A stretch of DNA of 64,000 nucleotides, taken from NCBI GenBank assembly GCA_019634005.1, contig JAHQWD010000002.1, positions 30,969 through 94,968 of the forward strand, read 5' to 3'. Positions 8,765 through 13,857 of this stretch are shown one piece after another (within the stretch, counting starts at the first letter, position 1; the number at the start of each line of letters is the position of its first letter). Source of the DNA: Candidatus Kaiserbacteria bacterium. GTDB taxonomy: Bacteria > Patescibacteriota > Minisyncoccia > Phycocordibacterales > UBA918. Position numbers and translations under genes: made by a program. The notes under the pieces were generated by a model. That model had not been told where the DNA came from. It did not search any database and saw nothing but the letters and a program-made list of their open reading frames with translations.

Positions 8765-9091
8765 TTATGCGGCCTTAGCTGCCTTAGCTGCTGCGATTTC
8801 CGCTTCCTTCTTCTTCTGCTCAAGCTCCTTCTGCATCTTACCTCCGTGACGGATGAACTTCTTCGTTGGAGAGAACTCTCCAAGACGATGTCCTACCATC
8901 TCTTCAGATACGAAGACCTCGACGTGATCCTTTCCGTTGTGTACCCCAAAGGTAAAGCCAACCATCTCTGGTGAGATCATAGAATCTCGTGCCCAGGTCT
9001 TGATAGTTCCTGCTTCCTTAGGATTCTTTCCAGAAACTTTCTTCAAAAGCTTCTCGTCAACGTATGGACCTTTGTATAGTGATCGTGACAT
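8765..9091 (-). CDS. rpsS: 30S ribosomal protein S19
   Basis: [19 protein letters not shown]...[18 protein letters not shown]; start trimmed to conserved MSRSL at 9091. Confidence 0.93.
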
Positions 9092-9237
9092 AACGAAAAA
9101 ACGCGCAAAAGCGCCCACTTGAGAGTCTCTTATAAAGGTATGTAACGGTCACCCTTAGTAGAGACCCCCAAAACTTATAATTGGTGCCATTTCCTTCCTG
9201 CCAGGGCCGAAAATGACTGAGGTTTTGGAACGGGGCT

Positions 9238-9266
9238 ATAGTATCCGAAATACGTGGTGGTGTCAA
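9238..9266 (-). promoter_or_regulatory. Strong sigma70-like promoter TTGACA-17-TACTAT (minus) for rpsS...rplE
   Basis: Minus read ttgacaccaccacgtatttcggatactat; perfect -35 with 17-nt spacer; immediately follows terminator of upstream small ORF. Confidence 0.55.
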
Positions 9267-9270
9267 TATA

Positions 9271-9300
9271 AAAAGAAAACGCCGAGCCCGAGGGCATGGC
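9271..9300 (-). terminator. Rho-independent terminator after small membrane ORF
   Basis: 8-bp stem AAAACGCC/GGCGTTTT with internal mini-hairpin, then U-tract on minus strand (cgttttctttttat). Confidence 0.5.
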
Positions 9301-9331
9301 GTTTTGGTTGTTTTGGTTGCTGCCGCTACGT

Positions 9332-9478
9332 CTAGTAGCTTGCGACCACCATAGCGGGAACTGCGATGCAGGCAACCACGGCGGCTGTTAGAAGCAGCCC
9401 TGCCAGCAGACACTTTGTCCAAAATAGGGGACGGTCTGCTGCTTTTGCAGCGGCGACGTTTTTAGCAAGATCAGACAT
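9332..9478 (-). CDS. small single-TM protein (48 aa) MSDLAKNVAAAKAADRPLFWTKCLLAGLLLTAAVVACIAVPAMVVASY
   Basis: Not in 60-aa track as a separate ORF (inside spurious 9057..9422); found by reading: SD AAGGAG 7 nt before ATG at 9478, stop TAG at 9334-9332, terminator downstream. Confidence 0.5.
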   Translation of the reverse strand: MSDLAKNVAAAKAADRPLFWTKCLLAGLLLTAAVVACIAVPAMVVASY

Positions 9479-9581
9479 TTGTTTTCTCCTTGTGAGGGCG
9501 ATTCACCACCTGGTGAATACTTTTATACCCTCACTTTCTAATTATAGTATATCATCTATAGACACTTCTGTCAAGTAATTT

Positions 9582-9830
9582 CTATCGTATTCTCTGAAAT
9601 ATGGCTCTATGTAAGCGTAGAATACGCTTAAACACCCGTGTAGACGCTACCCACCGCTCTATAGGCTCTAATACACCACAGAGAATAAGGGCTAGTACGA
9701 GTAAAAAGAGCCCCAGAAGCACCTCAACCGTCGCTTCAAGCCCATAGAGGGCATAGGTAGTACTTGATATAAACGCAGACGGAATCACAATCGTTACATA
9801 CGCAGCCGCTTTCAGGACACTCTTTGTCAT
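9582..9830 (-). CDS. small membrane protein (82 aa)
   Basis: Start trimmed to ATG at 9830 preceded by GGAGG; two predicted TM helices (VTIVIPSAFISSTTYALYGL, LLGLFLLVLALILCGVL). Confidence 0.45.
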   Translation of the reverse strand: MTKSVLKAAAYVTIVIPSAFISSTTYALYGLEATVEVLLGLFLLVLALILCGVLEPIERWVASTRVFKRILRLHRAIFQRIR

Positions 9831-9874
9831 TGTGCCTCCATTGTATACCGCATCCAAAGAAAAAGGCGTCCGTA

Positions 9875-10210
9875 TCAACAGACGCCTCCTGGATACATCG
9901 GTATCCACTTCTTTGGATGGGATACGCCGTAACGCACCCGCAGATAGTGTCGGAGGGACCAGTCATTAACAATCTGACACACCCTCTGCCAACACTTTCG
10001 TATGAACTCTCGGTGTATGCCAACACGTATAGCAATCAGCAAATACGTGCCGATAAACACCGAGTATTGCAGGAGCCACAAAGCAACCAGAACGCAGAGT
10101 AGTATCTGCATCAGCCCGAAGTTCTGATAGAGCCACACAGAAATTCCTGCCGTACTTGCCCATGGACCGAGAACAAGTACAAGAAAAAACGAATGGATTC
10201 TCTCTAACAT
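9875..10210 (-). CDS. small membrane protein (111 aa)
   Basis: Start trimmed to ATG at 10210 preceded by AGGGGAGAG; hydrophobic FFLVLVLGPWASTAGISVWLY, ILLCVLVALWLLQYSVFIGTYLLIAI. Confidence 0.45.
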   Translation of the reverse strand: MLERIHSFFLVLVLGPWASTAGISVWLYQNFGLMQILLCVLVALWLLQYSVFIGTYLLIAIRVGIHREFIRKCWQRVCQIVNDWSLRHYLRVRYGVSHPKKWIPMYPGGVC

Positions 10211-10257
10211 GTTCTCTCCCCTTATTTGATCAGCCGACCAAAATCCTACCACAAAAC

Positions 10258-10286
10258 AAAAAAGCCCCCAAGGGGGCTTTTTTGAT
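10258..10286. terminator. Palindromic rho-independent terminator directly after rplB (aaaaaagcccccaagggggcttttttg)
   Basis: 7-bp GC-rich stem with A/T tracts both sides; terminates the rplC-rplB unit before the inserted small genes. Confidence 0.65.
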
Positions 10287-10297
10287 AAGAAATATCT

Positions 10298-11158
10298 CTA
10301 TTTCTTTGAAGTCATAAGCTTACCTGGCTTACGACGAGATACGATAAGTCGATCAGAGTACTTCTTCGGCTTACGTGTCTTTTGTCCCTTACCAGTAGGG
10401 CGACCCTGCTTGGTACGCTGACGACGATGTCCTCGTGGTGAGCGTCCCTCTCCACCTCCGTGTGGGTGGTCTACCGGGTTACGTGCTGCTCCACGTGTCT
10501 TCGGACGAAGACCCATGTGACGTGCACGTCCTGCCTTACCAATAGTGACGAGCTGGTGCTCTTCGTTAGACACCTCTCCGACGGTTGCCCATGCGGTAGA
10601 GATAACCTTACGAATCTCAGTAGATGGCAGCCTGATCTGCGTATATCCAGAGTCATGCGCTACTACCTCAGCACGGTTTCCTGCAGAACGCACGAGACGT
10701 GCACCTGCGTTTGGCTTAAGCTCGATGTTGTACACGAAGGTACCTGAAGGAATCTTGCCAAGCGGAAGACGGTTTCCTGTCTTCGGCTTTGCCTCCTCTG
10801 ACACCTCAAAGGTGTCTCCTACCTTCATGTCCTGTGGTGCAAGGATGTATCGTCGTTCTCCATCTGCATAGAGTACGAGTGCGATGAATCCTGAGCGATT
10901 TGGATCGTACTCGATAGATTCAATCTTCGCTGGTACACCCTTCTTGTCGAACTTAAAGTCGATCTGTCGGTAGGTACGTTTGTTACCTGCACCACGGTAG
11001 TGGGTGGTAATACGTCCCTGACTGTTACGTCCACCGGTAGATCGCTTACCCTTCGTAAGTGACTTAAGCGGCTTGTTTTTCGTAGTTGAGAGTTTCTCGC
11101 GGTAATCGATAACACTTGCTCCACGACGGCCGGCTGATGTTGGTTTGTATTTTTTCAT
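10298..11158 (-). CDS. rplB: 50S ribosomal protein L2
   Basis: MKKYKPTSAGRRGASVIDY...GGGEGRSPRGHRRQ typical L2. Confidence 0.95.
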   Translation of the reverse strand: MKKYKPTSAGRRGASVIDYREKLSTTKNKPLKSLTKGKRSTGGRNSQGRITTHYRGAGNKRTYRQIDFKFDKKGVPAKIESIEYDPNRSGFIALVLYADGERRYILAPQDMKVGDTFEVSEEAKPKTGNRLPLGKIPSGTFVYNIELKPNAGARLVRSAGNRAEVVAHDSGYTQIRLPSTEIRKVISTAWATVGEVSNEEHQLVTIGKAGRARHMGLRPKTRGAARNPVDHPHGGGEGRSPRGHRRQRTKQGRPTGKGQKTRKPKKYSDRLIVSRRKPGKLMTSKK

Positions 11159-12211: not shown

Positions 12212-12832
12212 CTAGATGCTACGAACTTCGACTAATGTTCCCTTTCGACCTGGTACGGCTCCTGATACCACGAGGACATTGTCCTCTGTGTTCACCTGAA
12301 GCACTTTAAGATTCTTTACACTGACGCGGTCACTTCCCATGCGTCCCGCCATACGTGTTCCTTTTTGCACCCGCTGGATGCCTCCAATACCGATAGATCC
12401 CGGCGCACGAAGGGTATGCTTCTGTCCGTGAGATCCAGGACCTCCACCGAAGTTGTATCGTTTTACAACTCCCTGGAATCCCTTACCCTTTGAAACCGCA
12501 GAAACCACAATCTGGTCACCTGGCTCAAAGACGGATGCATCCATAGTCTGTCCTACTTCCATTCCTTCGATGTTCTCATCGAAGTTAGTACGTGGACGAA
12601 ACTCCTTCATGAACTTCGCCGCTCCTCCCTCGATACCACGCTGTGCTTTCGCTACACGTGACTCTTTCTGAGGAACAGTCGCGATCTGTACGGCATCATA
12701 CCCATCCTTCTCTGTACCCTTCACCTGCGTGATAGTTGCAGGGGATACCCGGAGGATGGTCGCAGCCATAACCTCTCCGTCTTCGTTGAAGACTTGGGTC
12801 ATGCGCTCCTTAGTACCGACAATGAATTTCAT
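12212..12832 (-). CDS. rplC: 50S ribosomal protein L3
   Basis: MKFIVGTKERMTQVF...KGKGFQGVVKRYNFGGGPGSHG typical L3. Confidence 0.95.
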   Translation of the reverse strand: MKFIVGTKERMTQVFNEDGEVMAATILRVSPATITQVKGTEKDGYDAVQIATVPQKESRVAKAQRGIEGGAAKFMKEFRPRTNFDENIEGMEVGQTMDASVFEPGDQIVVSAVSKGKGFQGVVKRYNFGGGPGSHGQKHTLRAPGSIGIGGIQRVQKGTRMAGRMGSDRVSVKNLKVLQVNTEDNVLVVSGAVPGRKGTLVEVRSI

Positions 12833-13117
12833 TACTGAATATGTCTTTGTGACTTATAAAAGCTTTCAAGTGACCTCCAAAACAAAAACCGCATATAGCG
12901 GAGCACAAGCTCACGAATATACGCGGTCTTTGTGCCCATTGGTCCGTCCGTAAACGTACGTAGGTCTTTTAAAAGCTGTGGGCAGTATACGGGTATTTGG
13001 GGAGATTGCAAGCTTTGAGCTTATGCGTATCCCCGTGCGAAAGAAGTCCTACACACAAACTCCCAAAGCCGTAACCGTGAAATAATATCTGTGGCATCAT
13101 TAGTATACAAAAGTCCC

Positions 13118-13160
13118 TTGAACACGCGAAGTGTCCAAGGGACAAAGGGTCAAAGACCAA
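13118..13160 (-). terminator. Rho-independent terminator after inserted high-GC gene
   Basis: Minus read gtcccttggacacttcgcgtgttcaagggac + ttttgtatac. Confidence 0.5.
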
Positions 13161-13170
13161 AGTGCAGAGG

Positions 13171-13766
13171 TCAGACGGTCTGTTGCTGAACCACCAGACG
13201 ACGGCGGTCGCCCGCGCCCCAGACGCCGTCGTAAGCAAAGCATTCCACGCTCGCCCTGAGCTTGCCAACGTACACGCAGACGCGGGCGACAAACAGCTCA
13301 CCGTTTACCTCAAAAAGGAAGAACGTGCCGCAACCTTCTTGCCGAAGTGAGTAGCGATGATTGCGACAGAACTCGACAATCTGCCCTTGATGCAGAACGA
13401 GTTTACACGGATCGCCATGTGATTCAAACAGCTGTTTGAACGTGCCGTTGCGTGTCATTTCATGCACGTCAACAGCGGTCTCGGGAGTGTCTTTGCCGGG
13501 AACATTGGTGCCCCAGTTTCTGAAGTCACCGTCGAGGTAGCCCGTAAAGACGTCAGTCGCTTCGGCGAGCGTCGTCTCGCCCCTGGTCGGAGCGAGAGTG
13601 ACGGTTCTGAGGTGGCGAGTGTATTCCCGTTCTTCTTCCGCCGCAAGACCGGAAAGAAATTTTTTCAACCCTTTCGGGTTGTCAATCCACCCCTGCATTA
13701 CACCCGAAGACATGGCCGGCACATTCTCAAACATGCAGGCCCAGAATTTCATCTCTTGCTTACTCA
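13171..13766 (-). CDS. hypothetical protein (198 aa), compositionally distinct (high GC) gene inserted between rpsJ and rplC
   Basis: Start trimmed to ATG at 13766 (MSKQEMKFWACMF..., AGGAAA upstream). GC-rich stretches (ccagacgacggcggtcgcccgcgccccagacgccgtcg) unlike flanking ribosomal genes. No motif recognised. Confidence 0.5.
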
Positions 13767-13857
13767 TGACGTTTTTTCCTTTCCAGGATTTCGTCGTTGA
13801 CAAAATACTCTAAACTACTTTTTGGTATACTATATCTACAGAAGTTTGTCAAACACA

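Follow-up and report, generated by a model that had tools for sequence, protein, structure and literature searches.

How do genes for small membrane peptides come to stand inside a cluster of ribosomal-protein genes, and does their function have anything to do with the ribosome? The question is raised by a stretch of 64,000 nucleotides (hereafter the window) from a Candidatus Kaiserbacteria bacterium (contig JAHQWD010000002.1, positions 30,969 to 94,968). Its minus strand carries a cluster of the S10 type, comprising tuf, rpsJ, rplC, rplD, rplW, and rplB, followed by rpsS, rplV, rpsC, rplP, and further genes. Textbooks cite the S10-spc cluster for its frozen gene order, and its concatenated genes serve widely as a phylogenetic marker and for spotting chimeric bins of metagenomes. 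In the window, rplB (10298-11158) and rpsS (8765-9091) are separated by 1.2 kb, a gap given as 9119-10297 in the original prediction, which was made from the sequence alone. Three small open reading frames (ORFs) lie in it, termed orfA, orfB, and orfC here. All features of the window described in the following are located on the minus strand, i.e. the operon strand, unless another strand is named. The favoured explanation, for which a probability of roughly two in three is estimated, is that the region represents an accessory-gene slot at a transcription-unit boundary within the S10 cluster, and that this boundary is a property of the whole clade.

The S10 cluster is split at two junctions

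In this Kaiserbacteria/Paceibacteria-like clade of the candidate phyla radiation (CPR), the S10 cluster is split at two sites, between rpsJ and rplC and between rplB and rpsS. The comparison encompasses 161 related loci, collected around relatives of rplB (80 from species-representative genomes and 80 from metagenomes); the nearest genomes are metagenome-assembled genomes of Candidatus Kaiserbacteria, Paceibacteria, and other Patescibacteria (CPR). The rplB-rpsS gap has a median length of 1169 bp, exceeds 200 bp in 95% of the cases, and ranges from 83 to 5843 bp; in 45 further loci, rpsS was not found despite more than 1 kb of sequence past rplB. The rpsJ-rplC gap is of similar size (median 1057 bp; longer than 200 bp in 98% of the cases). 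The remaining directly adjacent junctions of the cluster are tight, with median gaps of 7-36 bp (for rplN-rplE, the measured interval includes rplX). The arrangement is genuine, since a contig from an independent Logan assembly matches the window at 100% identity over 8861 bp and related genomes have the same architecture, which rules out an assembly artefact. The interruption had been taken as a one-off insertion, a reading that is superseded by a junction open throughout the clade.

The rplB-rpsS junction is delimited by transcription signals. An intrinsic terminator follows rplB (10257-10284; 12-bp stem and U-run, -18.1 kcal/mol, z score -3.7) and forms the left boundary of the slot. Within 130 nt past the rplB stop codon, a terminator is present in 121 of 140 unique related loci, compared with 6 of 160 control segments inside rplB. 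The right boundary is marked by the terminator of the orfC unit (9276-9305; -17.5 kcal/mol, z score -5.2), which has T-runs on both strands and adjoins the -35 box of the rpsS promoter in the window as well as in the related loci L082 and L086. This promoter, TTGACA-17-TACTAT (9238-9266), matches the consensus at 10 of 12 positions, in agreement with the proposed restart of rpsS transcription, and nearly all loci harbor a TTGACW-N16-18-TAnnnT promoter ahead of rpsS, even distant ones with a gap of about 100 bp. In the scanned region, six promoter-like sites were counted (2.7 +/- 1.8 in shuffles) and likewise six terminator-like sites (1.8 +/- 1.4 in shuffles). The rplB terminator, the three small minus-strand ORFs, and the rpsS promoter described in the original prediction were thus all recovered, position for position. 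As terminator and promoter are found clade-wide, the junction is a transcription-unit boundary, of which the window shows one instance. It separates a unit of rplC-rplD-rplW-rplB, ending with rplB (uL2, a 286-aa ORF; Pfam Ribosomal_L2_N/C in the identical contig L081), from a unit of rpsS-rplV-rpsC-rplP and further genes, starting with rpsS (uS19; Pfam Ribosomal_S19 in L081). Because the junction is already insulated by these signals, insertions at this site would spare the expression of the ribosomal-protein genes.

The content of the slot varies strongly between genomes. Crude ORF calling in the first 80 loci yielded 356 gap ORFs, of which 243 have no relative among the others. The most frequent cargo, present in 28 of these 80 loci (including L006, L008, L017, and L064), is a protein of about 105 aa encoded on the opposite strand; it carries the conserved motif MSKPRGKEHTTLTETA...IAPG...ISGQ..VQK[VI]AIH and shows a weak match to the metal-binding family DUF2103 (E value 2.6e-4). 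A secreted protein of about 500 aa, encoded on the operon strand in 11 loci, combines an N-terminal hydrophobic segment and a PG_binding_1 domain with a very long Asp/Glu-rich repeat region; it is the first gene past rplB in L006, L007, L014, L024, L025, L030, L031, L046, and others. Further cargo includes TSP1-domain proteins, an ECF sigma factor with neighbouring membrane proteins, PhoH/PIN, and RTX and M10-RTX proteins. None of these recurrent types, the DUF2103-like protein included, occurs in the window. A small membrane gene behind rplB was considered as a general rule and rejected: it is found in four close genomes only, and other candidates look spurious or unrelated.

That unrelated cargo occupies the same slot speaks against reading a function from the position beside ribosomal genes. 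This bears directly on the proposal that the peptides are tied to the ribosome or to the synthesis of ribosomal proteins, e.g. as membrane tethers or regulators, with an adaptive position. Their location on the same strand inside the cluster and their basic tails, which could bind RNA, speak for such a link. Nevertheless, the orfA/orfB pair is restricted to four close genomes, the slot carries unrelated genes elsewhere, a strong terminator stands between rplB and the peptides, and the rpsS unit has a conserved leader of its own that is the likelier regulator. A connection with ribosome synthesis, which had been suggested from the position, is therefore undermined and appears improbable. The DNA between the rplB terminator and the rpsS promoter ranges in length from about 0.1 kb to over 5 kb, and its genes are unrelated from genome to genome.

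Divergence and proposed exchange of the slot content

Three loci, L082, L086, and L162, are close relatives of the window (91-99% identity of the rplB protein). Between the window and L082, whose rplB proteins are 99% identical, the DNA identity amounts to 94-96% across the ribosomal genes up to position 10243. Inside the slot it drops to 76% or the sequences become unalignable, and from 9306, at the orfC terminator, it reaches 92% again. The synonymous divergence (dS) of rplB, rpsS, rplW, and rplV lies between 0.16 and 0.24, compared with 1.6 for orfB and saturation for orfA (proportion of synonymous differences, pS, 0.81). The dS of the slot is thus far above that of its flanks, a difference that selection on amino acids cannot cause. 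The alignment breaks abruptly past a conserved TG(G/A)TAGnAT box. In all four genomes with the orfA/orfB pair, TTTTTTGTTTTGTG(G/A)TAGnAT is kept and similarity stops directly past it. The next 33 nt, a segment of the 5' untranslated region (UTR) of the first slot gene, show 76% identity between the window and L086, 75% between L082 and L162, and 55% between the window and L082. The flanks follow the opposite pattern (window-L082 94%, window-L086 78%).

The simplest reading of these alignments is homologous exchange of slot alleles. The near-invariant ribosomal genes on both sides, together with the terminators, would serve as homology arms, so that slot alleles could be swapped by homologous recombination. 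Recombination of this kind would account for the near-saturated dS inside flanks of 92-96% identity, the sharp breakpoints, and the mosaic similarity. No integrase or transposase is present, and no convincing repeats flank the slot; the only repeat-like pair is formed by the terminators at its two boundaries, whose T-rich tails are 74% complementary.

The four genomes also differ in gene content. In L082, L086, and L162, one extra gene on the opposite strand is located between orfB and the orfC-type unit. It encodes a protein without Pfam match in L082 (8551-9681, minus strand of that locus; 280-376-aa ORF), an RTX-repeat protein in L086 (8565-9371, minus strand), and an M10 peptidase with RTX repeats in L162 (4295-5710, minus strand). 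The window lacks this gene, and its slot (about 9307-10242) is therefore the smallest version among the four.

The small membrane-protein genes orfA and orfB

The first two genes of the slot are similar in layout. orfA (111 aa, 9875-10210) is preceded by the Shine-Dalgarno (SD) sequence GGGGAGAG and encodes two to three hydrophobic segments and a basic C-terminal tail, and orfB (82 aa, 9582-9830; SD GGAGG) two hydrophobic segments and a tail of the same kind. Together with a single C-terminal hydrophobic segment in orfC, these Kyte-Doolittle profiles agree with the earlier description of small hydrophobic ORFs on the operon strand. Directly behind the rplB terminator, the window, L082, and L162 carry an orfA-type gene and then orfB, while in L086 an orfB-like paralogue occupies the position of orfA, ahead of the orfB orthologue. 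The orfA homologues of L082 and L162 are 45-51% identical to orfA (BLASTP E values of 1e-35 to 1e-39). For orfB, a protein-database search matches three close relatives; the homologues P0002-P0004 are 59-72% identical to it, and the orthologues show 54-73% identity among themselves. NCBI lists orfB as hypothetical protein from a Candidatus Kaiserbacteria bacterium. The family is very narrow: a profile of orfB, searched against 1.84 billion proteins, matched just two cluster representatives, that of orfB itself and that of the L086 paralogue. The ratio of nonsynonymous to synonymous divergence (dN/dS) is 0.30-0.37 for orfA and 0.10-0.22 for orfB. As judged from this conservation and these ratios, orfA and orfB are genuine protein-coding genes under purifying selection; by hydropathy, their products are predicted to be small membrane proteins restricted to this lineage. 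The two genes are probably paralogous to each other. No paralogue of orfA, orfB, or orfC occurs elsewhere within the 64-kb window.

For orfA, an automatic gene caller came to a different result. In L081, it skipped orfA and called a 61-aa ORF on the antisense strand (L081 5057-5242, minus strand, corresponding to 9917-10102 on the plus strand of the window). No match to orfA was obtained in searches of a database of 5.8 billion proteins, possibly because the antisense ORF was called in its place. The call of the antisense ORF, together with an ambiguous codon score, would fit the view that orfA is a chance ORF and orfC another one inside a small RNA gene, orfC having no homologue and only its promoter and terminator being conserved. 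For orfA, the conserved open frame and the dN/dS of 0.30-0.37 argue against this view, as does the loss of the antisense frame in L082. For orfC, an AAGGAG SD at ideal spacing, a coding-like codon score that ranks among the top 2% of non-coding frames, and an ORF with a hydrophobic end in the counterpart unit of each relative do so. That some of the ORFs are untranslated is thus considered unlikely, although it is the least improbable of the alternatives to the favoured explanation. The original prediction, which took all three for genes, holds in part: orfA and orfB are kept in four genomes (dN/dS 0.10-0.37), while orfC has no relative in the 161 loci; in codon usage, orfB falls inside the range of real genes and orfC is coding-like, while orfA is ambiguous.

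Several signals may govern the expression of the pair. The extended -10 sequence TGgTAGGAT (10243-10251) in the tail of the rplB terminator is a putative orfA promoter, and orfA would be transcribed from it or by read-through. A terminator-like hairpin with U-run overlaps the orfA stop codon (9856-9886; -27.8 kcal/mol, z score -6.8) and is conserved in L082 and L162. Between this hairpin and orfB, the possible -10 box TACAAT (9840-9845) is conserved in all four genomes at a distance of 8-10 nt from the orfB start codon, while the SD of orfB is not. It would give a short-leader orfB transcript, unless orfB is reached by read-through of the orfA hairpin. Transcripts of orfB could run on into orfC and end at the orfC terminator.

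A lytic origin was also considered, with orfA and orfB as a holin/antiholin-like pair left over from a phage lysis cassette. Small size, a pair of hydrophobic segments, and a strongly charged C-terminal tail in both proteins would fit, and the L086 orthologue starts with MKTTMKK, which resembles a dual-start motif. Neither PHROGs nor Pfam returned a holin match, the best PHROGs hit being a family of unknown function (E value 0.03). The slots of the four genomes are devoid of endolysin, integrase, or other phage genes, and no flanking repeats resembling attachment sites were found. With neither a holin family match nor lysis genes nearby, this origin is rated as the least probable of all explanations considered.

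The orfC unit

The third gene forms a unit of its own. A promoter, TTGACA-17-TGnTATACT (9546-9574; 11 of 12 matches plus TG extension), is followed by a stable hairpin in the 5' UTR (9492-9534; -21 kcal/mol, z score -5.2), orfC itself (48 aa, 9332-9478), and the terminator at 9276-9305. The perfect AAGGAG SD reported earlier is present 7 nt ahead of the start codon, as is the terminator, and orfC encodes a hydrophilic N-terminus and the single hydrophobic segment at its C-terminus. Features not included in the original prediction are the orfC promoter, the hairpin at the end of orfA, and the structured leader at 9111-9180 treated below. The codon score of orfC corresponds to the 15th percentile of real genes and to the top 2% of non-coding frames, and its translation is considered likely. 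Promoter and terminator of the unit have homologues at the same position in L082 and L086, where the counterpart units hold different small ORFs (64 and 67 aa) that likewise end in a hydrophobic segment. The unit is thus conserved, while its peptide is not.

A short hydrophobic peptide (48 aa, i.e. below about 60 aa) with a strong promoter of its own, a structured 5' UTR, and a terminator invites comparison with type I toxin-antitoxin modules, in which orfC, and possibly orfA and orfB, would be membrane toxins held in check by an antisense RNA. Searches of Pfam, NCBIfam, and PADLOC gave no match to a toxin family. No promoter-like site (at least 9 of 12 matches) was detected on the opposite strand in or beside orfC, in a consensus scan that may miss a weak promoter; the sole antisense candidate (9213-9242, 9 of 12) lies upstream of the terminator at 9276-9305, with its T-runs on both strands. 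In the predicted fold, the 5' UTR hairpin ends just before the orfC SD, which is unpaired, so that the mRNA would not be translationally locked. The hydrophobic segment is C-terminal, the unit is present in a single copy in the window, and relatives retain its promoter and not its peptide. orfA and orfB, for their part, are longer than 80 aa, with at least two hydrophobic segments each. The toxin idea, lacking a toxin or defence family match and facing an accessible SD in the predicted fold, is regarded as improbable, slightly less so than the ribosome link and clearly more so than a chance ORF. Within the favoured explanation, the three products would be inner-membrane peptides that act as dispensable envelope accessories, neither toxins nor ribosome factors. 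Each of orfA and orfB would fold into a helical hairpin whose basic tail faces the cytoplasm, and the two may act jointly; orfC would be a tail-anchored peptide.

A number of points weigh against the slot as described. The evidence for a mosaic consists of one 33-nt segment, the tree and identities of orfB are roughly congruent with those of the flanks, and a local mutation hotspot may be an alternative source of the divergence. Membrane proteins, recognized by hydrophobic segments, are not significantly enriched among the slot cargo (45% vs 32%, p = 0.13). Profile and protein-database searches gave no homologue of known function for orfA, orfB, or orfC, and for orfC no match at all was obtained by tblastn in the 161 loci, its sole protein-database match being orfC itself. 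The AlphaFold model of orfB is all-helical and, at a pLDDT of 67, not reliable enough to be compared with known folds. Finally, the proposed promoters of orfA and orfB are weak matches, backed by conservation alone.

Structured leader RNAs upstream of rpsS and rplC

The slot ends at the rpsS promoter, which is separated from rpsS by a leader of about 140 nt. This leader contains a conserved structured RNA (9111-9180), a 70-nt hairpin with an invariant CCGUUA loop that is shared by most relatives. In an alignment of 43 sequences, RNAalifold predicts 15 base pairs, all of which show compensatory changes. In a version with 19 pairs, 17 are changed on both sides, and 85.9% of the alignment cells are paired, compared with 38-63% when the partners are slid by one to three columns. 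This version has 128 cells with double changes vs about 35 in controls, and the observed values were reached in none of 500 shuffles. A covariance model scores 66.7 bits at the leader of the window, its only operon-strand match in the 64 kb. It finds one operon-strand match in each of 58 related loci as well, upstream of rpsS wherever the locus includes this gene. In most loci with both elements, the loop lies about 105-130 nt downstream of a TTGACW-type promoter; its distance to rpsS is about 58-390 nt. Rfam 15 has no match to the leader: across the region, the full window, and 13 loci, nothing was obtained beyond tRNAs and, at the rplB terminator, noise below the threshold.

Just before the rpsS start codon, a short GC hairpin with a U-run (9099-9116) resembles a terminator; it may represent an attenuator or belong to an SD-less initiation region. 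Most relatives, even the ones with minimal gaps, have a hairpin and U-run in the corresponding place. No SD precedes rpsS in the window (9089-9100) or in the relatives examined. The U-rich tract ahead of the start often reads UUCGUUA(UG), echoing the CGUUA of the leader loop, and in a subgroup of loci (L006, L024, L085, and L095) the second hairpin likewise has a YNGUUAC loop.

The leader hairpin is a candidate for an autoregulatory ribosomal-protein leader, possibly an attenuator. It probably binds a protein encoded downstream and would exert feedback on the rpsS unit, possibly via the hairpin and U-run before the start codon. The loop (9136-9160 in the window) usually has the form GCCGUUACC in relatives and ACCGUUACA in the window. 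We take the usual form to be the reverse complement of the helix-11 loop of 16S rRNA, GGUAACGGC in E. coli and B. subtilis; it is presumably also one base off GGCCGUAAC of helix 69 of 23S rRNA. The window contains no rRNA gene of the clade, and no 16S gene is present in any of the loci.

A second conserved structured element was observed upstream of rplC (12212-12832), at 12870-12990 in the window and in most relatives. A TTGCAA-17-TATACT promoter precedes it, and its sequence runs AAGACCTACGT..GGACCAATGGGCACAAA(G)ACCGCG...GAGCTTGTGCTC...GCGGTTTTTGT..GGTC, with a long covarying stem that ends in a U-run. GGGCACAA can pair alternatively with UUGUGCUC, and L017 shows the compensatory pair GGGCAGAA/UUCUGCUC. 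No Rfam match was obtained for this element either, which looks like an attenuator of the rplC-rplD-rplW-rplB unit and is perhaps responsive to L4. The rpsJ-rplC junction itself (13016-13853 in the window) holds an orphan ORF for a soluble protein of 187 aa (13171-13734), which has no Pfam match and no relative among the loci; at this junction, L082 carries different DNA, 2.4 kb in length.

Relation to known systems

Flexible (replacement) genomic islands, i.e. hotspots between conserved core genes, are known from pangenome studies. The slot resembles them in its fixed place between core genes, its differing content among relatives, a divergence far above that of the flanks, the absence of mobility genes, and the mosaic similarity. 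Unlike such islands, it measures only 0.1-6 kb, lies inside the S10 cluster, and is delimited by a terminator at its rplB end and by promoter and leader at its rpsS end; moreover, no enrichment for surface proteins could be shown. In the examples considered for the secE-to-alpha cluster, insertions are mostly located between operons (PMC8046335). The likeness is that foreign genes enter a conserved cluster of translation genes at operon boundaries and leave it otherwise intact. The difference is that the break described here, at rplB-rpsS and rpsJ-rplC, falls within the stretch that forms the S10 operon of E. coli, is shared by a whole CPR clade, and shows a rapid turnover of content.

For the rpsS leader, the systems to compare are autoregulatory ribosomal-protein leaders, e.g. 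the S10 leader of E. coli, with its L4-mediated attenuation, and published candidates (Eckert and Weinberg 2020, PMC7247131). Common features are a conserved, covarying 5' UTR structure of a ribosomal-protein transcription unit and a hairpin and U-run behind it. The candidate leader of rpsS differs in having no Rfam match. In the passages of that study that mention rpsS or S19, no leader directly before rpsS is given; the sole rpsS entry there is the L2 leader of Alphaproteobacteria, which precedes rplB (PMC7247131). With type I toxins and small bacterial membrane proteins, orfC shares size, hydrophobicity, and autonomous expression signals. It is unlike the toxins in that no antisense partner and no family match were found, the hydrophobic segment is C-terminal instead of N-terminal, and the SD is accessible. 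None of the three peptides was significantly matched by a profile of Pfam, NCBIfam, PHROGs, or PADLOC, and they are seen here as ordinary lineage-specific hypothetical membrane proteins. What stands out is the clade-wide split of the operon, its hypervariable slot, and the new leader RNA, the slot being similar to known hotspots and the leader to known leaders, of which no described family matches it. In a literature search, no paper came up on such a split of the operon in CPR bacteria or on a leader ahead of rpsS in them.

Significance

Tentatively, a wider arrangement can be envisaged, which is rated as somewhat doubtful: cassette slots at both S10 junctions throughout the clade, with the ribosomal genes as universal homology arms, would exchange small membrane, secreted, and regulatory genes between lineages, and each sub-operon would have an RNA attenuator leader of its own (CCGUUA before rpsS, the alternatively pairing hairpin before rplC). 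Two routinely open junctions in the S10 cluster are of practical concern in binning and annotation, since the contigs could be mistaken for chimeric or broken ones at points where the content changes this fast. orfA-type genes, missed or assigned to the wrong strand by one automatic gene caller, are an annotation issue of their own. To our knowledge, no regulation of ribosomal proteins has been reported for this phylum, and the rpsS and rplC leaders provide testable candidates for regulatory RNAs that are not in Rfam. The slot itself offers a compact natural system for the acquisition and exchange of accessory genes in the very small genomes of CPR bacteria.

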